A stretch of DNA of 64,000 nt, from positions 35,900,001 through 35,964,000 of the forward strand of contig OZ249436.1 in assembly GCA_965235115.1 (NCBI GenBank). Direction: 5' to 3'. How positions within the stretch are numbered: the stretch's first letter is position 1; each line of letters begins with the position of its first letter. The position numbers and the translations under genes are program-made. This document shows positions 1 through 64,000 of the stretch, in pieces. The DNA is from Laetmonice hystrix (Eukaryota). The notes beneath the pieces were generated by a model, which saw nothing but the letters and a program-made list of their open reading frames with translations, searched no databases and was not told the origin of the DNA.

Positions 1-3000
1 TGGCAGACACTCTCGGCTTTTCAAAGCAGACAGAAGCGTGGAGATGTTGGTATAAAACCTGCTATTTCTGTACACATACACCATATTTATTAATGATCCC
101 AATTCTATGTTTCCATGCCTTTACTGTCCAGGAGGGAGGCGATACTTGTGGTATATCATTTACTCCCATCTAATCTGTTTCTCCTACAGACCGTCTGTAG
201 GCCTAAGCGTCCGACGACGTTGTCAAGTAGTCCCAATGGCAATTTGCCGTAAAGGTTAAATTAGCAATGGTAAATGAAATGGTCGTACGTCTTTTCTACA
301 TCAGATATCCCATCCCCAAATATACAGTTTACAGAGATGTTGCAGGCAAATGCTGCCGTGCTGTACTGAAGCGGTACCTCCAATTGCACTGCCACCTTCC
401 GGCTTCCGATGGAATCACCACGGCACGTATACATGGCCGGCCCCGGGCACTGCCACCTTCCGGCTTCCGATGGAATCACCACGTATACCGGGCCGGGCTG
501 CCGCGGGTACCTGCAGCGGCGCTTCGCCGAGAGATAGGATTCTGCAATGCTAAGCCAAAGACTGCAGCAAACACTACAGTGAAGGCTGCCCACATGGAAT
601 GACTGGCCTTACACTCGACCAAACACTACAGCGAGGGCTCCCTACATGTTTGGCTGGCCTTATACTCGAGCGAACACTACAGTGAGGTCTCTCATCATGT
701 ACTGACTGACCTTATAGGCCTACTCGAGCAAACACTACAGTGATGGCTGCCTAAATGCACACGATATTTATACAGTGCCAACAGATGCAAGGAGTCATAT
801 TAGGCCTACATCGTTTTGATATAGAAATACTTCGATGCCCCTTAAACAGTGAAGACTACGGTGAAGACTGAGTGCTCTCTTTTCTATGAGCGAACGTACG
901 AGATGAATACTATACGAAAATTCCAGCTGCGAATTACAATACCAGACATGCATACAAACATAGCAATAATGACTTAATATTATGTAAAACAGATGTATTT
1001 ACCGTTTTCAATCATTCCCTGGCTAGTCCAAGCATATTTTTGCACACTGAAGAAGGTAGCAATGACATTCACAGGAAAAATGTCAAGTTGGCAGACACTC
1101 TCGGCTTCTCAAAGCAGACAGAAGCGTGGAGATGTTGGTATAAAACCTGCTATTTCTGTACACATACACCATATTTATTAATGATACCTCATTTCATGTT
1201 TCCATGCCTTTACTGTCCAGGAGGGAGGCGATACTTGTGGTCTATCATTTACTCCCATCTAATCTGTTTCTCCGACAGACCGTCTGTAGGCCTAAGCATC
1301 CGACGACGTTGTCAAGTAGTTCCAATGGCAATTTGCCGTAAAGGTTAAATTAGCAATGGTAAATGAAATGGCCGTACGTCTTTTCTACATCAGATATCCC
1401 ATCCCCAAATATAAAGTTTACAGAGATGTTGCAGGCAAATGCCGCCGTGCTGTACTGAAGCGGTACCTCCAACTGCACTGCCACCTTCCGGCTTCCGATG
1501 GAATCACCACGGCACGTATACCTGGCCGGCCCCGGGCACTGCCACCTTCCGGCTTCCGATGGAATCACCACGTATACCGGGCCGGGCTGCCGCGGGCACC
1601 TGCATCGGCGCTTCGCCGAGAGATAGGATTCTGCAATGCTAAGCCAAAGACTGCAGCAAACACTATACAGTGAGGGCTGCCCACATGGAATGACTGGCCT
1701 TACACTCGACCAAACACTACAGCAATGGCTCCCTACATGTATGGCTGGCCTTATACTCGAGCGAACACTACAGTGAGGGCTGCCATCATGTATTGACTGA
1801 CCTTATAGGCCTACTCGAGCAAACACTACAGTGATGACTGCCTACATGCACACGATATTTATACAATGCCAACAGATGCAAGTAGTCATATTAGGCCTAC
1901 ATGGTTTTGATATAGAAATACTTCGATGCCCCTTAAACAGTGAAGACTACAGTGAAGACTGAGTGCTCTCGTTTCTATGAGCGAACGTACGAGATGAATA
2001 CTATGCGAAAATTCCAGCTGCGAATTACAATACCAGACATGCATACAAACATAGCAATAATGACTTAATATTATGTAAAACAGATGTATTTACCGTTTTC
2101 AATCATTCCCTGGCTAGTACAAACATATTTTTGCACACTGAAGAAGGTAGCAATGACATTCACAGGAAAAATGTCAAGTTGGCAGACACTCTCGGCTTTT
2201 CAAAGCAGACAGAAGCGTGGAGATGTTGGTATAAAACCTGCTATTTCTGTACACATACACCATATTTATTAATGATCCCAATTCTATGTTTCCATGCCTT
2301 TACTGTCCAGGAGGGAGGCGATACTTGTGGTATATCATTTACTCCCATCTAATCTGTTTCTCCTACAGACCGTCTGTAGGCCTAAGCGTCCGACGACGTT
2401 GTCAAGTAGTCCCAATGGCAATTTGCCGTAAAGGTTAAATTAGCAATGGTAAATGAAATGGTCGTACGTCTTTTCTACATCAGATATCCCATCCCCAAAT
2501 ATACAGTTTACAGAGATGTTGCAGGCAAATGCTGCCGTGCTGTACTGAAGCGGTACCTCCAATTGCACTGCCACCTTCCGGCTTCCGATGGAATCACCAC
2601 GGCACGTATACATGGCCGGCCCCGGGCACTGCCACCTTCCGGCTTCCGATGGAATCACCACGTATACCGGGCCGGGCTGCCGCGGGTACCTGCAGCGGCG
2701 CTTCGCCGAGAGATAGGATTCTGCAATGCTAAGCCAAAGACTGCAGCAAACACTACAGTGAAGGCTGCCCACATGGAATGACTGGCCTTACACTCGACCA
2801 AACACTACAGCAATGGCTCCCTGCATGTTTGGCTGGCCTTATAGATCTACTCGAGCGAACACTACAGTGAGGGCCCCCATCATGTACTAACTGACCTTAT
2901 AGGCCTACTCGAGCAAACACTACAGTGATGGCTGCCTACATGCACACGATATTTATACAATGCCAACAGATGCAAGTAGTCATATTAGGCCTACATGTAC

Positions 3001-6000
3001 ATGGTATTGATATAGAAATACTTCGATGCCCCTTAAACAGTGAAGACTCCAGTGAAGACTGAGTGCTCTCGTTTCTATGAGCGAACGTACGAGATGAATA
3101 CTATGCGAAAATTCCAGCTGCGAATTACAATACCAGACATGCATACAAACATAGCAATAATGACTTAATATTATGTAAAACAGATGTATTTACCGTTTTC
3201 AATCATTCCCTGGCTAGTACAAACATATTTTTGCACACTGAAGAAGGTAGCAATGACATTCACAGGAAAAATGTCAAGTTGGCAGACACTCTCGGCTTTT
3301 CAAAGCAGACAGAATCGTGGAGATGTTGGTATAAAACCTGCTATTTCTGTACACATACACCATATTTATTAATGATACCTCATTTCATGTTTCCATGCCT
3401 TTACTGTCCAGGAGGGAGGCGATACTTGTGGTATATCATTTACTCCCATCTAATCTGTTTCTCCTACAGACCGTCTGTAGGCCTAAGCGTCCGACGACGT
3501 TGTCAAGTAGTCCCAATGGCAATTTGCTGTAAAGGTTAAATTAGCAATGGTAAATGAAATGGTCGTACGTCTTTTCTACATCAGATATCCCATCCCCAAA
3601 TATAAAGTTTACAGAGACGTTGCAGCAAATGCTGCCGTGCTGTAGCCTACTGAAGCGGTACCTCCAACTGCACTGCCACCTTGCGGCTTCCGATGGAATC
3701 ACCACGGCACGTATACCTGGCCGGCCCCGGGCACTGCCACCTTCCGGCTTCCGATGGAATCACCACGTATACCGGGCCGGGCTGCCGCGGGTACCTGCAT
3801 CGGCGCTTCGCCGAGAGATAGGATTCTGCAATGCTAAGCCAAAGACTGCAGCAAACACTACAGTGAGGGCTGCCCACATGGAATGACTGGCCTTACACTC
3901 GACCAAACACTACAGCAATGGCTCCCTGCATGTATGGCTGGCCTTATACTCGAGCGAACACTACAGTGAGGGCCCCCATCATGTACTGACTGACCTTATA
4001 GGCCTACTCGAGCAAACACTATACAGTGATGGCTGCCTACATGCACACGATATTTATACAATGCCAACAGATGCAAGTAGTCATATTAGGCCTACATGGT
4101 TTTGATATAGAAATACTTCGATGCTCCTTAAACAGTGAAGACTGAGTGCTCTCCATTCTATGAGCGAACGTACGAGATGAATACTATGCGAAAATTCCAG
4201 CTGCGAATTACAATACCAGACATGCATACAAACATAGCAATAATGACTTAATATTATGTAAAACAGGTGTATTTAGCGTTTTCAATTATTCCCTGGCTAG
4301 TACAAGCAAATTTTTGCACACTGAAGAAGGTAGCAATGACATTCACAGGAAAAATTTCAAGTTGGCAGACGCTCTAGCTTCTCAAAGCAGACAGAAGCGT
4401 GGAGATGTTGGTATAAAATCTGCTATTTTTGTACACATACACCATATTTATTAATGATACCTCATATCATGTTTCCATGCCTTTACTGTCCAGGACGGAG
4501 GCGATACTTGTGGTGTATAATTTACTCCCATCTAATCTCTTTCTCCTACAGACCGTCTGTAAGCGTCCGACGAAATTGTCAAGTAGTCCCAATGGCAATT
4601 TGCCGTAAAGGTTAAATTGGCAATGGTAAATGAAATGGTCGTACGTCTTTTCTACATCAGATATCCCATCCCCAAATATAAAGTTTACAGAGATGTTGCA
4701 GGCAAATGCTGCCGTGCTGTACTGAAGCGGTACCTCCAATTGCACTGCCACCTTCCGGCTTCCGATGGAAACACCACGGCACGTATACCTGGCCGGTCCG
4801 GGCACTGCCACCTTCCGGCTTCCGATGGAATCACCACGTATACCGGGCCGGGCTGCCGCGGGCACCTGCAGCGGCGCTTCGCCGAGAGATAGGATTCTGC
4901 AATGCTAAGCCAAAGGCTGCAGCAAACACTACAGTGAGGGCTGCCCACATGGAATGACTGGCCTTACACTCGACCAAACACTACAGCGAGGGCTCCCTAC
5001 ATGTTTGGCTGGCCTTATACTCGAGCGAACACTACAGTGAGGTCTCTCATCATGTACTGACTGACCTTATAGGCCTACTCGAGCAAACACTACAGTGATG
5101 GCTGCCTAAATGCACACGATATTTATACAGTGCCAACAGATGCAAGGAGTCATATTAGGCCTACATCGTTTTGATATAGAAATACTTCGATGCCCCTTAA
5201 ACAGTGAAGACTACGGTGAAGACTGAGTGCTCTCTTTTCTATGAGCGAACGTACGAGATGAATACTATACGAAAATTCCAGCTGCGAATTACAATACCAG
5301 ACATGCATACAAACATAGCAATAATGACTTAATATTATGTAAAACAGATGTATTTACCGTTTTCAATCATTCCCTGGCTAGTCCAAGCATATTTTTGCAC
5401 ACTGAAGAAGGTAGCAATGACATTCACAGGAAAAATGGCAAGTTGGCAGACACTCTCGGCTTTTCAAAGCAGACAGAAGCGTGGAGATGTTGGTATAAAA
5501 CCTGCTATTTCTGTACACATACACCACATTTATTAATGATACCTCATTTCCTGTTTCCATGCCTTTACTGTCCAGGAGGGAGGCGATACTTGTGGTATAT
5601 CATGTACTCCCATCTAATCTGTTTCTCCTACAGACCGTCTGTAGGCCTAAGCGTCCGACCACGTTGTCAAGTAGTCCCAATGGCAATTTGCCGTAAAGGT
5701 TAAATTAGCAATGGTAAATGAAATGGTCGTACGTCTTTTCTACATCAGATATCCCATCCCCAAATATAAACTTTACAGAGATGTTGCAGGCAAATGCCGC
5801 CGTGCTGTACTGAAGCGGTACCTCCAACTCCACTGCCACCTTCCGGCTTCCGATGGAATGACCACGGCACGTATAACTGGCCGGCCCCGGCACTGCCACC
5901 TTGCGGCTTCCGATGGAATCACCACGTATACCGGGCCGGGCTGCCGCGGGCACCTGCAGCGGCGCTTCGCCGAGAGATAGGATTCTGCAATGCTAAGCCA

Positions 6001-7062
6001 AAGACTGCTACAAACACTACAGTGAGGGCTGCCCACATGGAATGACTGGCCTTACACTCGACCAAACACTACAGCGAGGGCTCCCAACATGTATGGCTGG
6101 CCTTATACTCGAGCGAATACTACAGTGAGGTCTGCCATCATGTACTGACGTGAAGTCCCAATGGCAATTTGCCTTAAAGGTTAAATTAGCAATGGTAAAT
6201 GAAATGGTCGTACGTCTTTTCAACATCAGATATCCCATCCCCAAATATAAAGTTTACAGAGATGTTGCAGGCAAATGCTGCCGTGCTGTACTGAAGCGGT
6301 ACCTCCAATTGCACTGCCACCTTCCGGCTTCCGATGGAATCACCACGGCACGTATACATGGCCGGCCCCGGGCACTGCCACCTTCCGGCTTCCGATGGAA
6401 TCACCACGTATACCGGGCCGGGCTGCCGCGGGCACCTGCAGCGGCGCTTCGCCGAGAGATAGGATTCTGCAATGCTAAGCCAAAGATTGCAGCAAACACT
6501 ACAGTGAGGGCTGCCCACATGGAATGACTGGCCTTACACTCGACCAAAGACTACAGCAAGGGCTCCCTACATGTCTGGCTGGCCTTATACCCGAGCGAAC
6601 ACTACCGTGAGGGCTGCCATCTGATGGCTGCCTACATGCACACGATATTTATACAATGCCAACAGATGCAAGTAGTCATATTAGGCCTACATGGTTTTGA
6701 GATAGAAATACTTCGATGCCCCTTAAACAGTGAAGACTACAGTGAAGACTGAGTGCTCTCTTTTCTATGAGCGAACGTACGAGATGAATACTATGCGAAA
6801 ATTCCAGCTGCGAATTACAATACCAGACATCCATACAAACATAGCAATAATCACTTAATATTATGTAAAACAGATGTATTTACCGTTTTCAATCATTCCC
6901 TGGCTAGTCCAAGCATATTTTTGCACACTGAAGAAGGTAGCAATGACATTCACAGGAAAAATGTCAAGTTGGCAGACACTCTCGGCTTCTCAAAGCAGAC
7001 AGAAGCGTGGAGATGTTGGTATAAAACGTGCTATTTCTGTACACATACACCATATTTATTAA
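1..7062. repeat. Tandem array of a ~1.09-kb composite unit (about 6.5 units, begins before the window)
   Basis: Anchor TGGCAGAC(A/G)CTCT recurs at ~1, 1090, 2180, 3280, 4362, 5443 and 6970. Near-identical ORF translations recur with the same period. One shortened unit is created by a junction at ~6150. Each unit has an internal direct duplication (CACTGCCACCTTCCGGCTTCCGATGGAATCACCAC x2) and ~3.5 copies of the 52-bp monomer. Confidence 0.97.
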
Positions 7063-9593
7063 GGCAATGGCTGCTGCCAAAGTACTTCTGGCGGAAGACT
7101 ACCAAAAGGCTATTGCCAAAGTACCAATCAAAATACAGTATTTCTACTTTGGCAGCAACAAGCCAGGGTAATTGCTGCCAAAGTACCAATGGGCGACTGG
7201 CTTACAAACTGCTTGTTGCCTGATCCTGCCAAAGTACTTTGGAAGCAAGAAACATGTATACGGTCAACTCGGGGTTGATGCATGTAACAAAGTACTGTGT
7301 CCGCATTATAAAGCCACACGATTTTGCAGAAGACCGTGGGCTTCAGTATCAAAGTACTTTGTCAGCAACTTTATCAGGAACTCTTATTGCACATGTGGAC
7401 GAAGAACTTTGTCTGGAAGCGCTGTTACCAAAGTCTATGGGTACACATACACTGAAGTGTGAAAGCACAAAAGTTGTTAGGGGACGTTCAGACTATTACC
7501 GCGTTATATCAGTGGCGGATCCGGGGGTAGGGAGTTAACCCCCCTAGCCAATTTTGTCTTTTTTTCACCCTTAAAACTGTCCTAATTGTCCATGACTACT
7601 CCCCTCCCCCAGAAAATTCTTCCCTTAACCCCGCCCCTTCCTAAATCCCGCATCCGCCCGGTATCAATACGGTTTTTAATACCAAAGTAGGCCTACTTTG
7701 ACAGGAAAAAGTGTGATTAGGCCTATACTACAATTTCTAAGCATGACCTACTGAGCCAACGTCCTTTTTGTCTGGAAACATGAAATCTCTGGACCTGAGA
7801 TTTAGTATTGACCCACTTTTTCATGACACACAGGGACATTTTCGATGACGAAGTACTTTGTCAGGTGACGCTGTCTTAACATGACGTTTATTGACAGAAT
7901 AAAGTCAGGAAGTCAAGTGGTACTATATTTTGAACATGAGCTTTATTGCCAACGACCCTTCACATTGGACATAGAGAATTACAACTGTCGGTGTGGAGAA
8001 AATCTTAGGTGTAAAAGGTATACTCGTAGTTTGCTGACGTAGTCAAGGTAATGTAGGCCTACTTATATACATGTAGGCCTATATAATTTGGAGATACCAA
8101 TTAACATGCGAAACTGTGTAACCCTGAAAAAAAGCCTTTCAGAACTTCTTTCGCGAGTTACAGTAAAACAGCCTGCGGTAATTTGGCCTGAATCTGTATA
8201 GTAATAATTATGGAACACTTGGAAAAAGTGGAAACCAGTGGCAACAGTAAGGCTGCATTGTTATTGCCAAAGTACTGTGGCAGCAAGAGGTAGGGGGTTA
8301 GGCTGTATTGTTATTGCCAAAGTAACTGGCAGCAAGGGGTAGGGGGTTAGGCTGCATTGTTATTGCCAAAGTAATGTGGTAGCAAGAGGTAGGGGGTTAG
8401 GCTGCATTGTTATTGCCAAGGTACTGTGGCAGCAAGGGGCAGGGCGTTACGCTGCATTGTTATTGCCAAAGTACTGTGGCAGCAAGGGGCAGGGGGTTAG
8501 GCTGCATTGTTATTGCCAAAGTAACTGTGGCAGCAAGGGGTAGGGGGTTAGGCTGCATTGTTATTGACAAAGTAATGTGGTAGCAAGAGGTAGGGGGTTA
8601 GGCTGCATTGTTATTGCCAAAGTAACTGTGGCAGCAAGAGGTAGGGAGTTAGGCTGTATTGTTATTGCCAAAGTAACTGTGGCAGCAAGAGGTAGGGGGT
8701 TATAGGCTGCATTGTTATTGCCAAAGTAACTGTGGCAGCAAGGGGCAGGGGGTTAGGCTGTATTGTTATTGCCAAAGTAACTGGCAGCAAGGGGTAGGGG
8801 GTTAGGCTGCATTGTTATTGCCAAAGTACTGTGGCAGCAAGGGGCAGGGGGTTAGGCTGCATTGTTATTGCCAAAGTAACTGTGGCAGCAAGGGGCAGGG
8901 GGGTAGGCTGTATTGTTATTGCCAAAGTAACTGTGGCAGCAAGGGGTAGGGGGTTAGGCTGCATTGTTATTGCCAAAGTACTGTGGCAGCAAGGGGCAAG
9001 GCGTTAGGCTGTATTGTTATTGCCAAAGTACTGTGGCAGCAAGGGGTAGGGCGTTTGGCTGCATTGTTATTGCCAAAGTACTGTAGCAGCAAGGGGCAAG
9101 GCGTTAGGCTGCATTGTTATTGCCAAAGTACTGTGGCAGCAAGGGGTAGGGCGTATCATAATCACACCTGTAATAGCTAAGGTCTTGCCTTGTTGCACCC
9201 CTGTAACAATCATGGCAAAATGATTTTAACTTCGCTCTGAGTTACCGTTAATCATGTCAAATAATGTAGAAATGAACTAACCTTATCCCCTCTGGGATCC
9301 GTATGTCTTGTCTTCCTGGGTGTTTTTTTAGATACGTCTTCACAGTTTCTGAGGCGTATATGTGAACAACATTCTGACCCTGCTTGTACTGGTCAAATGC
9401 CTCAGAAAAGCTATGGTCCGTCGGAAACGTGTCACCCAGCTTCATTATAGCAGGACTAGTCAAGATGGCACCTCCTGGTCCTAGTCTTGGCGCCAAAAAA
9501 TCTAGGTCATATGTAACAAAGCTTCTGATTGGTACTTTGACAATAGCGTTTTGGTCGTCTTCCACCCAAAGTACTTTGGCAGTAGACACTCCG
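7063..9593. mobile_element. Non-autonomous TIR DNA transposon, MULE/Mutator- or foldback-like, 2531 bp
   Basis: 9-bp direct repeat ATTTATTAA at 7054-7062 and 9594-9602. Imperfect ~68-bp TIRs at 7063-7130 and 9526-9593 (core CTGCCAAAGTACTT..GG.GGAAGAC.ACCAAAA.GCTATTG.CAAAGTACCAATCA). The interrupted 1.09-kb unit resumes exactly after the second TSD copy. The CAAAGTAC motif is repeated throughout. No transposase ORF is visible. Confidence 0.85.
8251..9153. repeat. ~50-bp minisatellite (~18 copies) inside the TIR element
   Basis: Unit GGCTGCATTGTTATTGCCAAAGTACTGTGGCAGCAAGGGGTAGGGGGTTA; it contains the TIR core GCCAAAGTAC. Confidence 0.97.
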
Positions 9594-10085
9594 ATTTATT
9601 AATGATACCTCAGGTCATGTGTCCATGCCTTTACTTTCCAGGAAGGAGGCGATACTTGTGGTCTATCATTTTCTCCCATCTAATCTGTTTCCCCTGCAGA
9701 CCGTCTGTAAGCGTCCGACCACGTTGTCAAGTAGTCCCAAAGGGAATTTGCCGTAAAGGTTAAATTAGCAATGGTAAATGAAATGGTCGTATACGTCTTT
9801 TCTACATCAGATATCCCATCCCCAAGTATAAAGTTTACAGAGAGGTTGCAGGCCAATGCCACCGTGCTGTACTGAAGCGGCACCTCCAACTGCACTGCCA
9901 CCTTCCGGCTTCCGATGGAATCATTACTTCACGCATATCTGGCCGAGCCGCCAGGCACTGCCACCTTCCGGCTTCTTATGGAGTCACGACGTATACCGGC
10001 CCGTGCTGCCGCGGGCACCTGAAGCGGTCCACCTGAAGCGGTGCTTCGGGGAGAGATATGATTCTGCAATTCTAAGACAAAAATT
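9594..10085. repeat. Diverged terminal partial copy of the 1.09-kb unit
   Basis: Colinear with unit positions ~85-555 but with clearly more substitutions than the other copies. Confidence 0.92.
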
Positions 10086-10214
10086 TACATCTTAATCGCG
10101 GGGTGGGTCGGGGGATGCAAGTAGTGGAAATGAAAGGTATAGCCGAGGGGCATCTACTGTTAAAATATGGAGAAGATACTCGAATGAGAAGTATACATTT
10201 CACAGCCATTTATC

Positions 10215-10925
10215 TGTAGCGAATGTAGCCTACGGGACGGAAATGATTTACAGTTTTTTCGAATACTTTTAAGAAGCACACGAGATTTATATAATGCCAA
10301 CAAATGGTTATCATATTACATGGTTTTGATATAGAAATACTTCAATGCCCGTTAAACAGCAGATGTATTGAGTGACAAAGCTCGAGCTAATAGTATATGA
10401 AGCCAATGTATTTTACGATGTAGGCCTACACAGCACTTTATTCCGTTTATTGCACTGGGCAGTCTGGCTAACTGTTGCTGCTCACAACGTTGGTGCTCTC
10501 ACTAATGTTGTACTCACTGGTTGTACTGGTTGTACTGCTTGTGCTGGCTGACTGCTGGTACTGGTTAACTGCTTAAGAGCAGTCTGGTCCTTGCCTCACC
10601 TTATCATTCAGCGTTGTACCATCATAGGTGGCAGCACAGTCAAATACCACCCGCACCTTGGATTTATTCGGATTGAATAACGTACGATATTTATACAATG
10701 TCGACAGATGGAGGCAGTCATATTACATGGGTTTGATATAGAAATACTTCGATGCCCCCTAAACAGTGAAGACTGAAGTGTTCTCTTTTCTATGAGCGAA
10801 AGTACATGACGAATATTCAATGACAAACATTCCAGTAGCGAATTACGAACGTACGTGACGGAAATGGTTTACAGTTATTTTGAATAGGCCTACGTTCAAG
10901 AAGCACACGATATTTATAGAATGCC
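10215..10925. repeat. Degenerate reiterated fragments of the 1.09-kb unit's 3' part
   Basis: CACGATATTTATA(C)AATG...TTTGATATAGAAATACTTC...AAACAG motif is seen at ~10277, ~10683 and, partially, ~10903. Confidence 0.75.
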
Positions 10926-11193
10926 CTCACTGTTGTGTCTGCTCGAGTATAAGGCCAATCAGTCCATGTGGGCAGCCCTCAATGTAGTGTTTGCTCCAGT
11001 CTGAGGCCAGTCAATACATGTAAAGAACCCTCTCTGTAGTGTTTGCTTGGGTATAAGGCCAGTCAGTACAGGTAGGGAGCCCTCACTGTAGTGTTTTCTC
11101 AAGTCTAAGGCTAGCCAATACATGTAGAGAGCCCTCACTATATTGTTTCCTTCACTATAAGGACAGTCAATACATATAGAGGTCCTCACTGTA

Positions 11194-11247
11194 TTTTTCT
11201 TTTTTGAAATGCACGGGCATCAGGGGTAACCCAATTACTTTGACAAT
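11194..11247 (-). mobile_element. 3' fragment of the same SINE-like sequence
   Basis: TTTTGAAATGCACGGGCATCAGGGGTAACCCAATTACTTTGACAAT is identical to the sequence at ~11743-11788. Confidence 0.6.
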
Positions 11248-11736
11248 ACATGTAGGGGCCCTCACTGTAGTGTTTGCTCCAGTCTAAGGCAAGCCAATAC
11301 ATGTACAGAACCCACACTGTAGTGTTTGCCCCATTCTAAGGTCAGCCAATACATGTACAGACCCCTCACTGTAGTGTTTGCTCGAGTATAAGGCCAGTTA
11401 GTACATGTGGAGAACCCTCACTGTAGTGTTTGTTCCAGTCTAATGCCGGTCAATGCATCTAGAGAGCCCTCACTGTACAGTTTGCTCCAGCCGTAGGGCA
11501 GTCAATACATGTAGGGCGCCCTCACTGTTATGTTTGCTCGAGTAACAGGCCAGTCAGTCCATGTGAGCAGCCCTCACTGTAGTGTTTGCTCCAGTCTGAG
11601 GCCAGTCAATACATGTAAAGAGCCCTCACTGTAGTGTTTGCTCCAGCCCAAGGGCATTCAATACATAAAGGGATCCTCACTGTAATGTTTGCTCGAGTAT
11701 AAGGCCAGGTAATACATGCAGGTAGACCTCACTGTA

Positions 11737-11904
11737 TTTTTCTTTTGAAATGCACGGGCATCAGGGGTAACCCAATTACTTTGACAATGTCCCTAAAGAG
11801 AAAAGTTGTATAGTCCTCTACAGGAATCGAACCCAGGCCCTAAGATTACTGCACCCATTCGCATAGCATAAGGTGTCGACATCCGTGTTTCGTCGAGTTC
11901 GGCC
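11737..11904 (-). mobile_element. tRNA-derived SINE-like insertion in the 52-bp satellite
   Basis: The minus strand has a Pol III B-box match GGTTCGATTCC (11823-11833) and an A-rich 3' tail (T-rich at 11737-11746 on +). It interrupts a satellite monomer. A clear A box and TSD were not found. Confidence 0.55.
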
Positions 11905-14900
11905 AGTCAGTTTATGTGGGCAGCCCTCACTGTAGTGTTTGCTCCAGTCTAAGGCTAGCCAAAGCAACCCTCACTGTAGTGTTTGCTTGAGTATAAGGCC
12001 AGTCAATACATGTAGGGGGCAGTCACTGTTTCCTCGAGTATAAAGCCAGTCACTAGAGTTGGCAAGCTGTCACTGTAGTGTTTGTTCCAGCCCAAGGGCA
12101 GTCAATACATGTAGAGAGCAATCACTGTTGTATTTGATCCAGCCCAAGGGCAGTCAATACATGTAGAGAGCCCTCCCTGTAGTGTTTCCTCCAGTCTAAG
12201 GCCAGCCAAATCATGTACAGAGCCATCACTGTATTGTTTGCTCCAGTATCACGCCTCTCAATACAATGTCATGTTGGGAGCCCTCACTGTAGTGGTTGCT
12301 CGAGTATAAGGCCAGTCAGTCCATGTGGGCAGCCCTCACTGTAGTGTTTCCTCCAGTCTAGGGCTAGCCAATACATGTAGAGAGCCCTCACTGTAGTGTT
12401 TCCTGGAGTATAAGGACATTCAATACGTGTAGGGAGCCCTCACTGTAGTGTTTTCTCCAGCCCAAGGGCATTCACTACATGTAGGGAGCCCTCACTGTAG
12501 TGTTTCCTCCAGTCTAAGGCCACTGATATATTTGGAGAGCCATCAATGTAGTGTTTCCTAGAGTACAACGTCCGTCAATACATGTGGTGAGCCCTCACTG
12601 TAGTGTTTCCTCGAGTATGAGGCCAGTCAGTCCATGTGGGCAGCCCTCACTGTAGTGTTTCCTCCAGTCTGAGGCCAGTAAATACATGTAGGGCCCTCAA
12701 TGTAGTGTTTGCTCCAGCCCAAGGGCACTCAATACAGAAAGGGACCCTCACTGTAGTGTTTGCTCGAGTATCAGGCCAGTCACTACATGTGGAGAGCCCT
12801 CACTGCAGTGTGTGCTGGAGTAGAAGGCCAGACAATACATGTTGGGAGCCCTCACTATAGTGTTTGCTCCAGCCCAAGGCCAGTCATTACATAGAGGGAG
12901 GCCTCACTGTAGTCTGTGCTGTAGTATAAGGCCAGACAATACATGTTGGGAGCCCTCACTGTAGTGTTTGCTCGAGTGTAAGGCCAGTTAATACATGTAG
13001 GGAGCTCTCACTGTAGTGTTTGCTCGAGTATAAGGCCAGTCAGTACATATATGTGGGGAACCCTCACTGTAGTGTTTCCTCGAGTATAAGGCCGGTCAAT
13101 CCAGGTAGAGAGCCCTCACTGTACTGTTTTCTGGAGTATAAAATTAGTCAGTACACGTGGTGAGCGTTCATTGTATTGTTTGCTCGAGTATAAGGCCAGT
13201 CAATGCATGTAGGGAGCCCTCACTGTCATGTCTGCTCCAGCTCAAGGCCAGTCATTACATGCAGAGAGCCATCACTGTAGTGTTTGCTCCAGCCCAAGCG
13301 CAGTCAATACATGTAGCGAGCCATCACTGTACTGTTTGCTCTTGTCTAAGGCCAGCCAATACATGTGGAGAGCCCTCACTGTAGTGGTCCAGTGGCCTCA
13401 GACATGTGGCGAGCCCTCGATCAGTGTAGTGTTCGCTCGAGTATAAGGCCAGGCAGAACATGTGGGCAGCCCTCACTATAGTGTTTGCTCCAGTCTGAGG
13501 CCAGTCAATACATGTAGGGGTCCTCACTGTAGTGTTTGCTTCAGCCCAAATGCATTCAATACATGAATGGAGCCCTCACATGAGTGTTTGGTCGAGTATA
13601 AGGCCAGTCAGTCCATGTGGGCAGCCCTCACTGTAGTGTTTGCTCCAGTCTGAGGCCGGTCAATACATCTGGCATTTATAACGGACAGTGCTTCGACAGT
13701 GACAACTCGCAAAACATAAACATAAAGATATATACAACACAATCTTTAGTGTGATAAGTTGGACTACGTTTTGGCAAAAGGTCTCTTTTGGGTGTTTTGC
13801 ACCCATTTCACGTTTTCTATAAATCGCTCTCCTAGCTAAATAACATGCGATCTGTGAATTTGAAATAGCCCAAAAATCCGACGGTGTCTTGAATAGTTTG
13901 CTAGCTTTGGGGGCTTTTGCCCTTATGATTAGCTCAGAAAATAACTTTTATTGCCCCCTTTTGAACGATAATAGGGGATATATGGTTAAATAAAATACTG
14001 GAAAATAAAAGTGCCGATTAAAAGCTTTAGGAGACGTATCGTTGGCCTCTTTCACAACTCAGAAGTCACCAGCTTCAGGGGGAGCACAGGAGCGTCTAGA
14101 TGTTCTTCAGGAATCCACATGCGCTCCCCAGAATGGCGTTTTGGGGAGTTTCTATTCATTAAATTCTCAGAATAAAGATTTCACAAGGAAGTAGACACCT
14201 TTGACCTGTCTCAGTGCTATTTGCTTTAGTTTCCAGGTCGTTTATTGGTGTTTCAGCCTCTGTCGTTATACAAGGTGCCAGATCGGCGCTTGCTGCCTCA
14301 TCGTTGTAACTTGGTTTTTTCGTATAGAGCGCACTAGCGCATCGGACCGTCACAGCCACAGTGAAGGAAGCAGCTTGAAGGCACCTCGCTCAGAGCGTCT
14401 AGATGTTTTTTTCAGAAATCTGTAACGCAAAGACAAGTGGAAGAGAGACACGAATGTGAAAATGTCCAGTGAAGTTCGAAATGGAGACCGGTGCGGAGGG
14501 GGGGGGGGGGATTTCGACCTACCGTCCCCGACCACAAACATTTAGAACGAATTGAAACGTATCCGAAATGCGTCTAAAAATAGCCTTGCGGAACCGTTTC
14601 TACCTGTACAGACGCGCGCTCAATGCTTTTCGAATCGGACCACCTGAAAGCGTGTCGTCGTAGTGCGCCGATTATTCGGCGGTAAATCGCCGACCGAAGC
14701 GGAGCGGGCATAGTATGAACAAGGCTTTAAGGCCTGGACACACACGGGTGTCAAGCAGCAAGTGTTTTATGGGCCTAGGGGCTATCGGCAGTCTATCCTT
14801 CATCTCGCCAGACACGCAGATTCACAGACAACCAAATACATGTATAGAATAGATACTTTTATTTAGCACACTGAACTTGGCAGTTAGCAAAGTATCAAGA

Positions 14901-15399
14901 ACATATAAATGTTGCTCAGTAGATTGTACAACTCGCAAAGGCCAACCCTACTGGTGTAGGCCTAGAGTCTTCGCCAATTGACATTGTTACCTCTGATCTT
15001 AGACTTCCTATAGTAACATTTCAGATCACGTGAATGTGGTACACTTAAATACTTTTGATTAGTGAAAAAATATGTACTTACAATTCTTTCTACAAAGTAC
15101 CACTGTCAGATTATTATATATACAATTACTGGTTCACAGTGAGAAGGGTGACGACTAATATATACCTTTAGTTACACGTACATGAACAACATTTCGGGGT
15201 TGTCAACATATTTCGCTGGCTTATTTCACCAGAAAACAAGGCATTGCGTTCTTTGTAAATTCTACTCGATAAAAATTGCACATGAACACGAGCGGGCCCC
15301 CCCTCCTCCTGTGCCCCCCCCCGCTCGTCTCTTGCCCACATCTAACCAATCAAAGATGTTTTTAGATATGCTTCATAGCAAGAACTATCACCTTGCATA

Positions 15400-15673
15400 T
15401 GCGCAATCCCTCAAAGTAAAAATGGGTACACACTGTCAAGTCTTAATCAGTGCAAGATAAAGAGTGAGGTCTTAAATCGTACTGCAAGACAAACGCGTAA
15501 CGGGATGAGAGTCTTCACTGTGGGAGAATATGGCACGAGATGCCTGGCGCATGAATACGGCACGACATGAATCGTGAAATCTAAGACGTCAGAGCTACCT
15601 CAGTCTTATCTTGCACTGAATTGTCAAAGTCTTGCCAGTGTCTAACCATTTTTACTTTGAGGGATTTTGCACA
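15400..15673. mobile_element. MITE with ~70-bp imperfect TIRs flanked by TA
   Basis: TGCGCAATCCCTCAAAGTAAAAATGG...CAGTGCAAGATAA pairs with TTATCTTGCACTG...CCATTTTTACTTTGAGGGATTTTGCACA. Confidence 0.7.
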
Positions 15674-16051
15674 TAAAACCGTTACGTTGGAATGTTGATA
15701 AGCAGTGTTCTTCCCAGGAAAGGAGAACCAACAAGACCAGTTAAACAACAAACACACATTAATATTGGGTTTCAGGCATCAGTTGATAAGCATGTCAGGA
15801 GTACTCCTGTCCGGTCGGGGACTTTTTGAGACTATTAGCCCTTTTTATTCATGCCCACTGATTTAACAAATTTTAAGCAGTCCATTCACATGTTACAGTG
15901 GAGAAATGAGACATTTCAAAACGCTATCACATAAAACTCTGACAATCACTACAATTTAAAGTTGCATGTTATTCTAATTCCATGATCCTGCAATCTACCC
16001 GCAAAAACAGATAGGAGGTTGTTCATAATGCGGCAACAAATAGGCCCTCCA

Positions 16052-16079
16052 CAAAGAGCGTAATATATTACGCTCTTTG
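16052..16079. repeat. Perfect 28-bp palindrome, possibly a minimal TIR element
   Basis: CAAAGAGCGTAATA|TATTACGCTCTTTG; the flanks CCCTCCA and CCCGCCA resemble a 7-bp TSD with one mismatch. Confidence 0.8.
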
Positions 16080-17868
16080 CCCGCCATACGAAAAGCCTTC
16101 AGGTTATATTGCTAAGTTAGTCCATTTGTAACGTTACGGTTAAATTTCAAGAACACATTTATACAGGACGCAGTGCAATAGAGCATACATGATTATATCT
16201 TCGGTTGATTCAATGTTTTGATATAACAGAGTAATTAAAACATTGTCATCATAAGTGAGCCAATTAACGTCAACCCTTCTCATCACAGACTTACTTCGTT
16301 CGGCCACTGCGCGTCCAAGTTTATAAATACACGTATAAGGGATACATACTTCGTTGAGACCTTTGGATATACAAAGCTGGAAGACAAGGCAGTTGGCACA
16401 ATCTCTCCAAATACATATCATGCCAATACATACCATTACATGTTACATAACATGTCATTAAGTATACGTGTATGTGTGCGGTGTATGTGCTGGCTGACTC
16501 CACTAAGCCGGTTAGCCAAACGCTTTGATCAAAACCATCTCTCCAGTTTGAACACCTCTTTCAAATTGCCACAATTTGATCATGTTTTTATGATGGACAA
16601 CATAAAACAATACCGCTTGGCATGGTCTTTAACCAACACATTCAAACACTCCGGTGGATGGTACCAATATAAGATACCCGGTGGAGACTGAAGCCAAATC
16701 CTTAAACCTGAAGTACATATGGTCAACTGGTCGGTAATTAGGCTTATTGCCCGATCTCCTACACCAAATTAATTATCCCCATCTGATCCCCAGTCCTTAC
16801 TCTAGATATAACGTCCATGGATTACTTCGGTCGAAAACCTGTTGTCAGCTTTTTGTTCGTTCAAATTCTTGGTAGGCTTCTCGTTCTGCCGAAAAGGTAC
16901 CTTGAAAAACATACGAGAAAGTACATACAAAGTTTGCAGAACTTCGAAATACCCCGGCATACTGCTAAGTCTCCTACTGCCCACCTACAAACGGAATCTT
17001 GTTTGTATTGTAAAAAAAACATTAGATACCTTTTAAATCATGACGGGATTCACGAATGGTCTCTCCATGAATAACAATGGCTTAACAATTAGTACCACCA
17101 ATATATGATAATCTTCAGCATATCTGGTAGCAGAAAATAATGCAAATAATATATCATGTACATGAACTAAAACATTTTCATATAGGCCTAGAGCAGTACA
17201 GTTTATATGCTCATACAAATTATTTCGGAATGTCCTTTTTTCATTTAAGGACAGAAAAGGGAAATATAGACATAACGTACACATAACAACCGTTGAATTG
17301 CCCTCAGCTAGGATATGACTATGACAATTGTTAAAAGTTAGTGTAATCTTCACTGTTATTTAACTACAGTCAAACCCAGTAATGACATTCAAATTTGCTA
17401 GCTTCATCTGTCATTTCTCAGGTTCATCTCTCAAAATTAAAGAAGAAAGGCCAATTATATACAAGTCATTCTTTGTCATAGTAAATAGTGTGTAGATCAC
17501 TAATTCTTTATATTAACACTTTATTTTTCAACATTCTGTCTGAAAGATCTCATCTCATATCGACACCATTTTATTTCATATTTCACGATTAACTAACTAT
17601 ACAACTTATATCACATATCGACCAACAAACTTTACTGCAAGCGTCTGCAGCTATATCTTGTCCTAATATGACACCATAAATCAATTCTTAAAGTGCAGGA
17701 ACAAACGATTACACTTGAGGATGTCCTCACCTTACCCAGACTGATATTTTACAACTGATAGGATGTCCGAGGTATAATCCTGCCAACTTGGTCGCAGTTC
17801 AATCCTTCACAATGCCTGGGTCGCACCAACTGAGAACGTGTGCTGCCATCTGACGTTGACCGTCCGCA

Positions 17869-17981
17869 TCAATTCCAGTTCCCGGACTTGAGTATAGTGG
17901 CGCCACTGGCATAGACATCCTCCCGTTGTGCAACTAACCTTTTCTTCAGCTCATCTTCAAATGAGGTCATGCCACCGAAAC
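17869..17981 (-). CDS. STAP: STAP-like last coding exon (FGGMTSFEDELKKRLVAQREDVYASGATILKSGNWN*)
   Basis: Acceptor CGCTTTAG|; in phase; TGA stop at 17869-17871. Confidence 0.83.
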
Positions 17982-20900
17982 CTAAAGCGAAAGAATTTAG
18001 CAAAAATTTACTCAATGGAAAACTGAAGTTGAAAAAAACTGCACAAAAACCTGCTGTCAGCACAAGCCACCAGCCTGGGACAGTCACATAATGGATCGAT
18101 CTGGAGAGAAAAACCTTTCTCCTGTACTAGCAATATCAGAGGTGGGGGGAGGGGGGTATCCATAGAGTGGCCTAGGGGCCACGTACCTCCCTAGGTCGCT
18201 AGGGACAACAATAGACTCCAAATGGCTGTTTCCACTAGAATTTTACCCCAATCGTGTGACCCTCTGCCCCTCCCAGAGTGCTACCCCTGAGAACGAGATC
18301 CGTGCTTGCTGAAGGAACTGGACTTAGTATTGTTAAATTAGTTATCCCCTCTGTCCCCCCCCCCCTTGTCACCTGGTCAAGAGGTGAAGCGAAGATTTGA
18401 TCGATTTGATTTGATTTGGTTGAAGTCTAATTACATACATGTAACTTAGAAGGGTACGTGGGCATTGGGTTGGGTAGGAAGGTATATGGTTTATGCCTAT
18501 AGCGAAACTATTTTTGAAAAGAAACTTGTAGACATACCGCCTGGTTTAGGTGGTGTGGGTGGTGGTCTGCCAGCCCCTGGTGGTGACGTCATAAACCCTG
18601 ATGACTGTAGGGGTTGGTCTGATGGTGCCATGTCAACCCGATTATAGTCGGCTCGAGCCGTGTTGAATCCGCCAGGTGGCGGAGGAGGAGGCATAAGAGC
18701 CCCCATAGACGGCAGTGGTGGTGGTGGTGGTCCCCCGCCGAGTGGTGGTGGAGGTGGCGGCATGCCTGCACCACTGCCACCCGTTCCGAAACCGTAATCC
18801 CCAGTTCCATAACCGTACGCATCATCCGACATTTGACGGGAAACTCCTACGGGAAAAACAGCCAAAAATACTTGGTTGCCACAATCCAGACATCAAAACA
18901 CTGTATTTATATATGCCTGGACTCCCACACAATGCACGAAACCAGACTCACGCATTATACCAAGGCACTACAAGTAGGCTGGCGATCCGTTTAAATATTA
19001 GGCCTAGGCCTAACTAAGCACAGAAGTTTTAGAACAGCAAGCAAAGTCACAAACACCAAGACCATATTACTTTTTATCTGGCCGACAGACACAAACATTC
19101 ATTGTTAAATTCAAATTTGCAATTTTTAGTAGGTCTAAGTGCCGACAGACGACAGACAGTTCATTCCGTGTGGAGAGCTATTTTTGGAAGATTGGGGGAA
19201 CAGAACCCATGTGCAATGCCCACAGCCTGTGCACCTATTGTGTGGCGTTACCTTGGCTAGAACCCGAAGTGGACATCCGATCGAAACTGGACTCGAGACT
19301 CTCGTTTCGCTGCAGAGTTTCTGTGGGAGTCATCCTCGGAGGTACTGCAACACGTCCACACACACACACGTACTACAGGCTCCATGTGTGCTGAGCTCAT
19401 CACAACTCACTCCTTACACACTCCGTAACGTCAACTTTAACTTCTTCCAACTACGGCTTATTTTTATAAGCGAGGTTTTAATCAGTGATTTATTAATTTT
19501 GCCCATCTGTGATGCAAATCAGAATCTTCTGTACATTACTTCTAATAGTAGGCCTAATGGACTTCTTGTGACAGTAGAGAGTAAATGAACATGTAGGATT
19601 TGCCCTCAAAAGACCAATCTGTGGTTGTTATTCATATCGATTCAGCGACATTTTAACAAGATAATATTGCCAATGGGGCAGGCGTGCACGTGAGAGGTTC
19701 AGATCGAGTTTAGTTTGATCAGATAAATTAAATGTGCATGTTAATTTGTTGGTTCAATTTTGTAATTGTGTTTGCTTGATTGAGGAACATGTTGCTTTGC
19801 TAGCGTTTAACTTATCATGATTTACCTGTTCTATTCAAACTGGGGTCTGAGAACCCGCCCTCTGGTGGTGGACCCGCACCTGAAAGATGAGACACGGTGT
19901 GACATGTGTGACCAGGAAGGTGTCACTGTGACGTGTGACCAGGAAGGTGTCACTGTGATATATTGACCAGGGAGGTGTCACTGTGATATATTGACCAGGG
20001 AGATGTCACTATGACATGTTGACCAGGGAGGTGTCACTGTGACATGTGACCAGGAAGGTGTCACTGTGACGTGTGACCAGGAAGGTGTCACTGTGACATA
20101 TTGACCAGGGAGATGTCACTATTACATGTTGACCAGAGAGGTGTCACTGTGACATGTTGACCAGGGAGGTGTCACTGTAACATATTGACGAGGGAGATGT
20201 CACTATGACATGTTGACGAGGGAGGTGTCACTGTGACATGTTGACGAGGGAGGTGTCACTATGACATGTTGGTAAGGGAGGTGTCACTATGATATTTTGA
20301 TCCTCCACGTGTCACCGTGACATGTTGACCAGGGAGGTGTCACTGTGATATTTTGACTTGGGAGATGTCACTTTGACATGTTGACCAGGGAGGTGTCACT
20401 GTGACATGTTGATCAGGCACGTGTCACCGTGACATGTTGATCAGGTATCAGAGTCAGCTGCGGTCAGCCACCCGGCGCCGCTCAGTCCGCACCACGTAAA
20501 CACACGCCAGGTGGCGCACCGGTCTCAGACAGGTGATTTTATTGCGGACTGTACATGTACATGTAGGCTACATTGCAGCACGACACGTTAATACGTCCAC
20601 ACTAGCTCTCAGGCTACATTTACGGGTGTGACCTTGAGAACCTGAAGGCGCTATGTTCTGACCCGACTACTGGTAATCTGACCTCTGACAGGTCACGCTT
20701 AGTGCAGTTGTATACGTCACTGAACCAGTTACCTGATGTATACATGTACACGTGAACCAGTTACCTGATGTATACATGTACACGTGAACCAGTTACCTGA
20801 TGTATACATGTACACGTGAACCAGTTACCTGATGTATACATGTACACGTGAACCAGTTACCTGATGTATACATGTACACGTGAACCAGTTACCTGATGTA

Positions 20901-23900
20901 TACATGTACACGTGAACCAGTTACCTGATGTATACATGTACACGATAGGGTTAGCCATAGAAAACATTATCAGCGTCCTACAACTGTGGTTATTTGAGGA
21001 GAACATCTTCCTATCCTTGTTAGTCATTCCAACGTCAAATAACGACCCCCTTCGAAGGTTTCCGAGAGCGATTGGTCAATTCAAGTAGGCCTATTCATAC
21101 CTTTTTGTAAGACTTTTTGTCAACTGAAGATGTCGGATTCAACCGACACAACATACAGGCCTAAATCTGTTTGAAGTTACTTGTAGCTAAATTCTAATTT
21201 CCGATTAGCACTTAAACAGACCCTGCTTTAACTTTACCGTAAAAATCGAAGAATGTCTCTGTGAATTCAAGAATCCATGACTGAGATGTTATAACCAGAA
21301 GACATAAGCTTTTATTCCGATGTAAAGTATTCTGTAACTCCAAGCAACACCCTGTGTCTATCCTCACAGTTCCCGATACACATGGTTGCCTGAGCTGGCC
21401 CTGTTTGGATGATTACGACATGGCCTCCCTGCTATTACTAGAGGAAGTACATACCATGTTACACGTTCTACTCCACTTAGTTGTATGATGATTGTCATTT
21501 TATGCTAGACTGAACATGTACGAGTAAGTCAACCACAAACACCATGCACGTCAATGTGTAAGTTCTCAATCAGATTATGCTGCATACTCTTTGTAATATT
21601 ACAAGGACACATAGCTTAATCTACCCCAAAGCCTAAGATAGGTCGAGATAGACAACCCATTCTACCCATCAGCTAGTATTAATACATGCAGCGTCTACCA
21701 ACTACGACTCCGCAAGGTCACTCAACCATGGCAGGGATGACTAAACACGCTACCTTTGCTAGACTGTCATACACACACTGGCCATAAGTATCGCAACATT
21801 GAATAACACATCAAAGTCCAGTTTGAAAAACTGTGTTACAAAAATTTCTTCCATTTTCTTTATACTATACTCAAGACGTCCTGAAAGTGCACCGATCTGA
21901 AGCCTTTTTTCTGGCCTTCCTCGGAAACAAAGTCCTTCAATACCTTGTCGGGTAACCACGTGACCTGATAATTTCCCGAATCGGTCATAAGAATCTGACA
22001 ATCGGCAGGAGACGCCGATCTTCTCTCGATGTATGGACGACCACGTTTAATTTTTCATGGTATCAGTTTGTTAGTACCATACCCATCTGGCTGTGTCCTG
22101 CACCCAAACATCTTCTTCTCTCAGAGAAATGAGTACATGACGTTCAGCATTTGTAAGTTCTCGTACCTTCGGCATGGGAGGAGCAACATGAACCCCCTTA
22201 TACAGTCTCATCTGGGTCCAGTTCGTAAAAAAATGAGATCTTGCTTAAGCTTAAGCTTAACGCTTCTGATTGGCTGATCTACTGAGGCCGGCCAATCAGA
22301 AGTCTTAAGCTTAAGCTTAAGCAAGAGCTTAAGTTTTTACGAACTGGGCCCTGGTCAACCTTTCCCTTTATACACGGAGAGCATGAGCAAGTATTCGGTA
22401 ATACACGATCGATGAGATCGGAATGAAGGACTGTTTCTCCTGCTACTGTTCAGTGCGATATTCATCATGTTGCAATATTTCTGGCCAGTGAGTGTATGTC
22501 CGGTAGGAAGTAAATTACCCAGTCAATCACCCATAGCTACTATAATCCCAACACCAAGTACAGCAATGACACCAAGTACAGCAATGACACCAAGTACAGC
22601 AATGACACCAAGTACAGCAATGACACCAAGTACAGCAATGACACCAACAGCACAACAGTTACAGTGACAGGTCCAAGGCGGGAATATCACACCCAGCTTT
22701 TACACATTTGTAAAGCAACCGTTTAAATAGAAACTTTACAGTAAACTGAACTTTGAAATGAAGTACACTCATGAAGCACAAAGTGTTTGAAATGCTAACA
22801 GGTGTTGAAAGTCCTCTCACGGTCCTGATGTTTTGACATAGAGACGGCCACAGCAAGACTCTGCCACAGACAGGGGCAGTCTGAACAGTATGTTGTCAGA
22901 TCGTGGCTGCTTTCTAGGATAACTACTACTAAAAACACAGGACGGGTTTTCAATCTTACCTCTTGCTCGTGCTGATTGACGTGAAAAAGATCAAGTATTG
23001 AAATCAATCAAACTAATCAATGTCCAAAACTATGTGATGATATTATGGACCTAACTGTGGGGGTTGAGAGATGTGGTTGCAGACTGGGTGGATAGAGAAG
23101 TAAAGGTAGTCTTACCATCATAGACAGCGCGACCTCCGTACGTGTCCATGCTACCCATGCCGGCCCCGGGTGGGGGTGGTGGGGGTACAGGCGGGATGGA
23201 CAGTCTGGACTGGTCCCATTCTGTAACACAACCAACGGTTCCATCAACTTAATCAACTATACTACTAGTTTATATAGTGAACCTCTTCACCTTGGCCAGT
23301 CTATAGGTTTAATAGCTTTAGGTAACGTATGATTAGTAACATTTCATGACCTGAGTTTACTTTTCTTTGTAGTCTTTGGCTAAGCAAGACAGCACGAGAA
23401 AATGTCTAGACATAACAGCTTAGCCTTTTTCATCAGTTTAGCTAGCCATTACTCTAACTGTAAGTAATGCTTGAGTTACTGCAACGCTTTATCGGCATTA
23501 TCGGTAAAAAGTACCGGTAATGATTCAAGAATATGTGAACAAAAATAAACACAGCTGAACGAGCAGGTCTGAGGCAAACACATAAAGAGGCAGTCCAGAC
23601 ACGATCTGATACAAAAGTGAAATGGATTTTGAGAAAGCACCACCAGCAGTCTACGACAGTCAAAAGTAAGGATACTCTGAAAGTCAAAGGAAAACTAGTA
23701 TTATAAGGAAATGTTTAATTAATAGATAACCTGAAACTTGCGAAGGTTGAGCAAAACAAACATCGGTCCATACTTACGGGGTGTCTTCTTTTTCATATCA
23801 TACTCGATTTCCATAGCAGCTTGCTGGATTTCGCCGGGTACGCTGCCTGTGACGTTCATCTGGATTTTACCTCCTCCCCGTGGACGTGTATGTACGTCAG

Positions 23901-53900: not shown

Positions 53901-54014
53901 AGAGTATGTTGTCCTCTTTCAAAATTCAGCAAAAAAATGATACCTCACCGGCTTAGTTTTTTTGTTAGGAGCGTTTGAAGTTGGTATTTTCTTCATGTTA
54001 ATGAATAGAGTTTG

Positions 54015-54051
<37 letters not shown>

Positions 54052-54083
54052 TTTTTGTCAGAACGGTGTTATGACAAATAGAA

Positions 54084-54121
<38 letters not shown>

Positions 54122-59215: not shown

Positions 59216-59299
59216 CTTCCCGTGTCACGCATGGGTGACCACCCTGTTCTGGGCAAACTTGTTGAACAAATCCTTGACAGAACAACACCACTATGGTCC

Positions 59300-59600
59300 C
59301 AGTCCTTGTCCCAGTAACTGTGGAGACAACTGACCCCTCTGTGGATCTTCAGTAAAACTGGAGGTATCCAGGTTTGCTAGCGAGCCATGAATACACCCAA
59401 GTCCGTCAGCGACTGTTCCACGCCCCGCTGACCACGGCCGCCTTCACCCTACCCAGTCACTTTCTCCGCGAAGCAGTTACAGGTGCTCATTGGCCGGCGG
59501 CGGGAGCAAAGACGTATTCGAATAACAAATGCACGTGGTCACCCCGTGCGTCCAAACATTCGATCCCCCTAGGTTGTTAGTCGCAGAGTTTGATCCAAGA
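59300..59600 (-). promoter_or_regulatory. Probable promoter region of the STAP-like gene
   Basis: CpG-richer patch just upstream of exon 1, with CCAAT (ATTGG on + near 59489) and an E-box CACGTG near 59532. Position-based inference only. Confidence 0.35.
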
Positions 59601-59800
59601 GCAGGCGGTAGAAGATAGTGAACAGAGACAGCTGCGATTTGAGGGTTCATCTGCAAAACTCAGGAGTGGATCGGAAGTTATGCTGGAATCAGTGAAGAAG
59701 AAAGAAAAAAGAAGAAAAAAAGAGCAAAGTTCTCTGGAGTGGAAGCATATGTTGCCTATGCCGTTTCACCCTTCTTACTTCATACCTCAAACATACATGT

Positions 59801-60119: not shown

Positions 60120-60147
60120 CAAACATATAGCCTACTAGATCTATAGT

Positions 60148-63956: not shown

Positions 63957-64000
63957 CTGCAAGATGGAGTAGGTTACACTTCTTGACAAGTGCTCCTCCG

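Follow-up and report, generated by a model that had tools for sequence, protein, structure and literature searches.

The 64,000-nucleotide stretch of Laetmonice hystrix DNA analysed here (contig OZ249436.1 of assembly GCA_965235115.1, forward-strand positions 35,900,001 to 35,964,000; hereafter the window, numbered from its first base) is scattered with short insertions at TA dinucleotides, which duplicate the TA and often add a small palindromic core such as GGCC between the two copies. These TA-site insertions are real and far beyond chance. We think it probable that they are the scars of several TA-targeting cut-and-paste DNA transposons, which inserted and were then excised.

The insertions are seen most directly as filled and empty sites in homologous repeat copies, chiefly those of an interrupted tandem array:

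1..7062, + strand: tandem array with a unit of ~1.09 kb, holding the insertion record; seven units aligned, pairwise divergence 1.7-5.0%
7063-9593: 2.5-kb element interrupting the array, with imperfect inverted ends and a 9-base target duplication (7054-7062 / 9594-9602)
9594..10085, + strand: last array unit, resumed past the inserted element; 10-11% diverged in alignment and used as outgroup

Between 1 and 11 kb we find 11 clear TA-duplicating differences between repeat copies, with the TA duplicated in 11 of 11. Positions are those of the first TA of the filled copy, and the list also gives one probable event and the words found in the rest of the window:

198..205: TA-GGCC-TA scar, also at 1287, 2377, 3478 and 5642 (5 units); empty TA at 4560 and 9708
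715..722: TA-GGCC-TA scar fixed in the array, also at 1806, 2900, 3999 and 5070; empty in the adjoining 52-bp subunits, e.g. 663
801..808: TA-GGCC-TA scar fixed in the array, also at 1892, 2986, 4087, 5156 and 6682; empty at 10317 and 10724
1664..1667: TA>TATA, in one unit only (unit alignment)
2842..2849: TA-GATC-TA scar, in one unit only (unit alignment)
2992..2999: TA-CATG-TA scar, in one unit only; its target was the second TA of the GGCC scar at 2986, which is older
3643..3649: TA-GCC-TA (5-base) scar, in one unit only (unit alignment)
4020..4023: TA>TATA, in one unit only (unit alignment)
7688..7695: probable GGCC scar in a short palindromic motif of the 7063-9593 element; homology to empty relatives only ~17-27 bases
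8701..8704: TA>TATA, in 1 of 17 units of a 50-bp array
9790: TA>TATA, in the outgroup copy only, polarity not assignable
10885..10892: TA-GGCC-TA scar; empty at 10264
13700..64000: another 18 TAGGCCTA words (14957 to 60380) and additional TACATGTA words, located in introns or between genes

The scar at 715 has 19-22 empty paralogues. Two further candidates are weak: at 10226 the aligner favoured a different path, and near 13046 there is an ambiguous 4-base gain. Comparing the arms of palindromic miniature inverted-repeat transposable elements, and four other tandem arrays, yielded no further clear case of GGCC. No scar word lies in the seven coding exons checked, whose 110 TA sites are too few to carry weight. 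Every copy difference cited in a preliminary description of this DNA is present in the sequence, including the plain TA>TATA changes at four sites, with two coordinates corrected by one base (798 to 799 and 8702 to 8701); the scar at 10885 had been overlooked. That description also counted at least ten independent events in 13 kb; the density within the array is partly inflated, scars being copied along with the units. Its example at 7683 fares less well, since the filled word at 7688 is matched over so few bases.

Ten of the 11 clear events are insertions as judged by the majority of copies or by the outgroup, 9790 being the exception. The seven aligned units contain 13 internal indel events, comprising six TA-type insertions and seven losses (1-46 bases, in one or two units). 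All five single-unit insertions duplicate a TA, and no other dinucleotide is doubled anywhere among the seven units. Both the polarity and the indel spectrum of these units thus uphold the insertions claimed by the preliminary description. That the differences are instead deletions between TA microhomologies, with the palindromes being conserved binding sites or old sequence, is extremely unlikely. Such deletions could account for the unpolarised event at 9790 and for the insert being missing from one of six units at 198; however, the five singletons lie in three different units and are missing both from the remaining units and from such outgroup copies as span these sites, so the events are not all deletions, and the insert at 198 is also missing from the 10%-diverged outgroup. 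Within the array, scars range in depth from fixed, through common to five of six units, to single-unit. Among singletons in the seven units there are 62 substitutions in 1088 columns and five insertions in 80 TA sites, so that scar insertions per TA and substitutions per base stand in a ratio of 1.1 (95% range 0.36-2.6), a figure that depends on five events in a region chosen for having shown them, and on a substitution count that is a minimum.

Word counts extend the observation beyond the array. Outside the arrays (50,086 bases, 3,483 TA sites), TAGGCCTA occurs 24 times against 0.5-0.75 expected and is the top non-homopolymer 8-mer, and TACATGTA occurs 11 times against 1.5-2.0; the whole-window counts of 40 and 36, respectively, are inflated by array copies. 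For TAGATCTA, 2 against 0.5, the word count falls short of significance, and it is the direct event at 2842 that carries the GATC class. Enrichment of GGCC is confined to TA flanks, with none seen between AT, TWA or other pairs. One-mismatch neighbours of TAGGCCTA stand at background (15 against 14-15), where a long steady process predicts 41. This again speaks against the palindromes being old sequence and, there being no surplus of decayed copies, suggests that the process is young. Either the scars have a mean age below ~5% divergence, then, or their loss outpaces their decay.

The cores do not come from their surroundings. GGCC occurs in 24 unrelated flanks and is a copy of neither, and this constancy excludes hairpin opening and templated repair as its source; hAT-type hairpin footprints and polymerase-theta templated inserts were accordingly rejected, as neither flank is copied. 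Polymerase slippage, the other process that might copy local sequence, can yield TA>TATA and can double an existing scar, and the TA changes in a 34-bp array do fall in AT runs. Yet the four TATA events in 1-10 kb are at lone TAs, and doubling is restricted to TA among the seven units. As a general account, slippage or flank-templated repair is therefore very unlikely; slippage accounts at most for part of the TATA class.

Nor do the two halves of a scar behave independently. Mixed halves (TA-GG-TG-TA) occur twice in the window, a background level, where independent ends predict 31.5, and thus both halves come from one symmetric donor, as inverted terminal repeats provide. This bears on a further proposal, that each end of a double-strand break at TA receives bases by non-templated or telomerase-type addition as the break heals. 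GG is indeed the commonest addition, and longer G-rich forms do occur (TAGGGCCTA, TAGGGGCCTA); but independent additions predict mixed words at a frequency observed neither in the window nor in the metagenome loci described below (5 against 134), the one-sided words TAGGTA and TAGGGTA show no excess, and CATG, GATC and CCGG are left unexplained. Such healing appears most improbable.

The sites themselves show a palindromic bias, A-W-G-TA-C-W-T. G is found at -1 in 22 of 48 half-sites against a background of 23% (p=0.0004), A is favoured at -3 (p=0.016), and W at -2. TAs are also re-used: six neighbouring scar-like word pairs share a TA against ~0.6 expected, and the CATG scar at 2992, sitting on the second TA of the GGCC scar at 2986, is a direct case. 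Three of the six pairs are of the same type, as slippage could produce; the other three are of mixed type, which slippage cannot produce. The fit of the CATG scar's right TA to the target bias may explain the nested CATG and GGCC words at 8068 and 58335.

Since the cores coincide with common four-base restriction sites, an artefact of assembly or library construction might be suspected. We give this explanation almost no credence, given that scars are handed down among tandem units and turn up again in public contigs unrelated to the window. In addition, a short-read contig from the same sample, and so only partly independent, spans 57548-58787 with no gaps and holds five scars, four of them GGCC and one CATG. 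Across 54470-64000, contigs from four runs of one sample show substitutions of the other haplotype and net length differences (+2, +6 and others); with the indel table swamped by repeats, no element-bearing allele of a scar site was seen.

The public contigs in question were found by a scan of metagenomes with a 16-base compound word from the window, which gave at least 119 loci (~3000 stretches are estimated). Counts were made with the query match masked, over 297 kb, and apply to loci chosen for the motif, whose host species may be few. Alignment reveals no similarity shared between the 119 loci and the window, and several loci look animal-derived (plectin repeats, bHLH, a kinase exon). In these loci TAGGCCTA occurs 110 times against 2.8 expected, TACATGTA 45 against 7.5 and TACCGGTA 15 against 2.3; 50 of the 119 have at least one further TAGGCCTA, and the mixed halves given above are again at background level. 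The scar signature extends beyond the L. hystrix genome, though the loci say nothing on its frequency. All-against-all alignment of the loci gave 72 indels, of which eight duplicate a TA and two of these are GGCC, too few for a spectrum. We also observed filled and empty GGCC pairs in other organisms' contigs (L036:9860 and L075:847), at ~81% identity between repeat copies.

How might excision give these products? We propose that a transposase would put an element into a TA, which is duplicated; that on later excision the first two to three bases of the inverted ends would stay on the flanks as 3' overhangs; and that these would be sealed by germline end joining nearly without loss. Mariner-type excision supplies the precedent, with 3' overhangs from the inverted ends and TA-flanked footprints of one to four end bases, one TA being re-used (PMC4423477, PMC1925063, PMC4490562). 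Since the end sequences differ, several families would have been involved. For the GG class, we infer from the word counts a donor with GGC...GCC ends and a three-base stagger. The resulting 3-base overhangs would give TA-GGCC-TA when two bases pair, TA-GGC-TA or TA-GCC-TA when three pair, TA-GGCCC-TA or TA-GGGCC-TA when one pairs, and TATA when both overhangs are trimmed. In the loci both minor classes are in excess (TAGCCTA and TAGGCTA together 91 against 26; TAGGCCCTA and TAGGGCCTA together 20 against 1.2), and there is no excess of TAGGTA (94 against 102), TAGGGCTA (4 against 5.4) or TAGGCGCCTA (0). Two-base GG overhangs are disfavoured because they lead one to expect TAGGTA and no 9-base class. 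The window series agrees weakly with the three-base reading (7 against 3.9 and 2 against 0.3 for the same two classes), and the direct GCC event at 3643 adds to it. TAGCTA (100 against 62 in the loci, 15 against 7.6 in the window) is unexplained by simple annealing, as is the rare TAGGGGCCTA. For the CATG class, a Tc1-like two-base overhang fits (PMC4490562).

Two TA-flanked elements reside in the window:

21770..22496: element with ~40-bp inverted ends starting CAC (CAC...GTG); single copy seen
61318..61528: high-copy miniature element with ends CTG...CAG inside TATA

The end type of the first could leave a CATG scar. The preliminary description had offered two readings of the inserts, as footprints of TA elements with GG..CC and GA..TC ends or as products of an undescribed, very frequent insertional mutation process; with no resident GG or GA element found in the window, the second keeps some probability. 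Its reading as footprints agrees with the duplicated TA and the symmetric, flank-independent insert, whereas no element with such ends is present in the window; the search it proposed for TA-flanked terminal inverted repeats yielded the CA type, at 21770-22496, and neither the GG nor the GA type in 64 kb. Inverted-end candidates in the loci (L007, GG, 159-1244; L060, L070 and L076, GA; L026 and L054, CA; L072 and L079, CC) were set aside as support, as control flanks gave similar numbers across the 119 loci (TA 9 against AT 12, CG 5 and GC 8). As a separate observation, TACACGTA and TACGTGTA occur six times outside the arrays against 1.5 expected (p ~0.004, uncorrected), and could be the scar of a CAC element or mutated CATG scars.

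Several results weigh against excision scars as the explanation. Inverted-end scans of the 64-kb window find no TA-GG...CC-TA or TA-GA...TC-TA element against 24 GGCC scars, and a Pfam scan of 138 of the 264 window frames (at least 62 amino acids; 60 array frames, the 64 shortest, one low-complexity frame and one scanned separately were left out) detects no transposase domain. The high-copy element at 61318 has no matching excess of scars (TACTAGTA 1 against 0.6; TACAGTA and TACTGTA 7 against 9.6), and a 52-bp satellite, 14% from its consensus, has no GGCC scar in 50 units, where ~1 would be expected at the mean density of the window. The three-base overhang model itself draws mostly on the contigs of other organisms. 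Published systems also tip the balance the other way: wild worm isolates have 93 insertions to fewer than 10 deletions (PMC4490562), and rice mariner elements an insertion to excision ratio of 2.6-2.8:1, with perfect excisions in 8 of 94 cases and flanks mostly damaged (PMC4423477, PMC1925063), whereas here scars outnumber residents. ZB and Sleeping Beauty prefer the target ATATATAT, as against G at -1 here (PMC7913693). Ends starting with GG do occur in animals, in the PHIS transposons ISL2EU, Nuwa and PIF/Harbinger, but the target duplications are AT for ISL2EU, TWA for Harbinger and CWG for NuwaI, not TA (PMC4482050).

As scars outnumber residents, the GG family would consist of a small number of frequently moving copies, unless its loss was recent. 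The same imbalance underlies an alternative in which no lasting resident is involved: a transposase, or a host enzyme derived from one, joins matched ends and at once removes them, or an excision-only enzyme has purged the family. This alternative accords with a count of 24 scars to zero GG...CC residents over 50 kb (95% bound of the ratio, at least 6:1) and with scars that are near-invariant and arise per TA at a rate close to point mutation. An excision-only mutant of Sleeping Beauty exists, reportedly known from one study. However, 50 kb is too small a sample, since by our estimate, in which genome size and mutation rate are assumed, a few hundred active copies per Gb hopping at ~1e-4 to 1e-3 per generation suffice, and the CA class does have a resident of matching type (21770-22496). 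We therefore regard the alternative as unlikely, though worth keeping in view. More specifically, and as a tentative suggestion, some animal germlines may harbour a TA-directed 'hit-and-run' mutator, a transposase or an enzyme derived from one that uses GGC...GCC ends; it would leave no lasting element, only a 6-base insertion of stereotyped form, made as often per site as point mutations. Either few fast-hopping copies with faithful germline end joining, or an excision-only or host-run process, can reconcile the scars with the lack of residents, and it is transposon excision of the former kind that we favour.

The surroundings of the scars are those of an animal-type region, with intron-split minus-strand genes amid many repeats, including:

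26158-26466, in a minus-strand gene setting: SH2 exon (Pfam scan)
62211-63335, in a minus-strand gene setting: ankyrin/SOCS-box frame (domain scan)

Several further features of the repeats were seen. The element at 7063-9593 is Mutator- or foldback-like and contains the 50-bp tandem array; the array unit past it is ~10% diverged and the portion ahead of it closely resembles the other units, as if homogenisation had been stopped by the insertion. The 52-bp subunits within the 1.09-kb unit (566-748) are the reverse complement of the nearby 47-copy 52-bp satellite (10923-13668), the consensus of which includes TACATGTA, possibly an old scar amplified along with it. At 20721-20944 a young tandem array has multiplied a scar-like word, TATACATGTA, which is present in each of its seven identical 32-bp units. 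Very high-copy short repeats occupy 59800-60190 and 63739-63784, with a summed contig depth of up to 48,000 against a background of ~55. Other inverted-repeat structures comprise a miniature element at 22214-22351, nested within the CAC element; one at 44730-45210 with GGGCC ends and an internal TCGTACG-rich array; others at 15397-15674 and 37075-37620; and TTAA-flanked elements at 51696-52230 and 53830-54465, which from their ends we take to be Kolobok-like, the second being a near-perfect 636-bp palindrome. A weak TA-CAGGGG...CCCCTG-TA pair at 50066-51923 (14 of 20 matches) may be chance.

Excision footprints as such are textbook knowledge. Among the top-ranked matches in the literature searched, which lay outside subscription journals and Repbase reports, there is no account of these words as genome-wide scars, of this density, or of scars without residents, and keyword look-up in the main text of amphioxus resequencing, restriction-site survey, clam and worm papers returned nothing relevant. 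Words of this kind are plentiful in the genomes of some fish, echinoderms, amphioxus and molluscs, and a genome paper or Repbase may quite possibly have remarked on them before. Footprints are otherwise known mostly from the laboratory, natural genomes offering few and untidy ones; here they make up every new insertion between array copies, and one word marks ~0.7% of TA sites. If this is general, word counts alone would date and type past DNA-transposon activity where no element survives, cycles of insertion and excision would be far more numerous than resident copies imply, and a TA-specific term would have to be added to the indel models used for these animals. A scar of 6 bases would preserve reading frame, and the scar spectrum predicts the ends (GGC...GCC) and the cut stagger of a donor element. 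Should the hit-and-run mutator be true, insertions in these genomes would come predominantly from it, and it would provide a readable, datable record of vanished transposon activity in several lineages.

Among known systems, two families whose ends resemble the GG class were rejected as donors. ISL2EU duplicates AT, and ATGGCCAT is not in excess (0 against 1.0 in the window, 3 against 5.1 in the loci). For PIF/Harbinger, the alignments give a 2-base duplication, and TWA-GGCC-TWA is found 0 times against 0.1 expected. The same applies to Zator, which likewise has a 3-base TWA target duplication. PHISTA duplicates TA, as the scars here do, and is described from rust fungi only (PMC12730594). The Stowaway and mariner miniature elements of grasses have in common with our data footprints found by copy comparison, one to four end bases within a TA duplication and re-insertion at the TA of an older footprint (PMC1925063, PMC4423477); our scars differ from those of rice in that flanks are intact here and TA-type events are all the single-unit insertions among array units. 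The closest parallel lies in the footprints of Tc1 in C. elegans (PMC4490562) and of ZB and Sleeping Beauty (PMC7913693), which share the TA target and remnants of inverted ends between two TAs. The 3' overhangs left by Tc1 are two bases long and non-complementary, and footprints are of 0-4 bases (PMC4490562, PMC7913693). Germline repair in C. elegans gives a varied spectrum, with 26 products in 103 animals (PMC4490562), whereas one 6-base product dominates here; the main ends here would also start with GG, and the target bias is G-TA-C. These differences aside, the scars work like a Tc1/mariner footprint, and both features that define one at the level of the scar, duplication of the TA and a symmetric insert independent of its flanks, are found in them.

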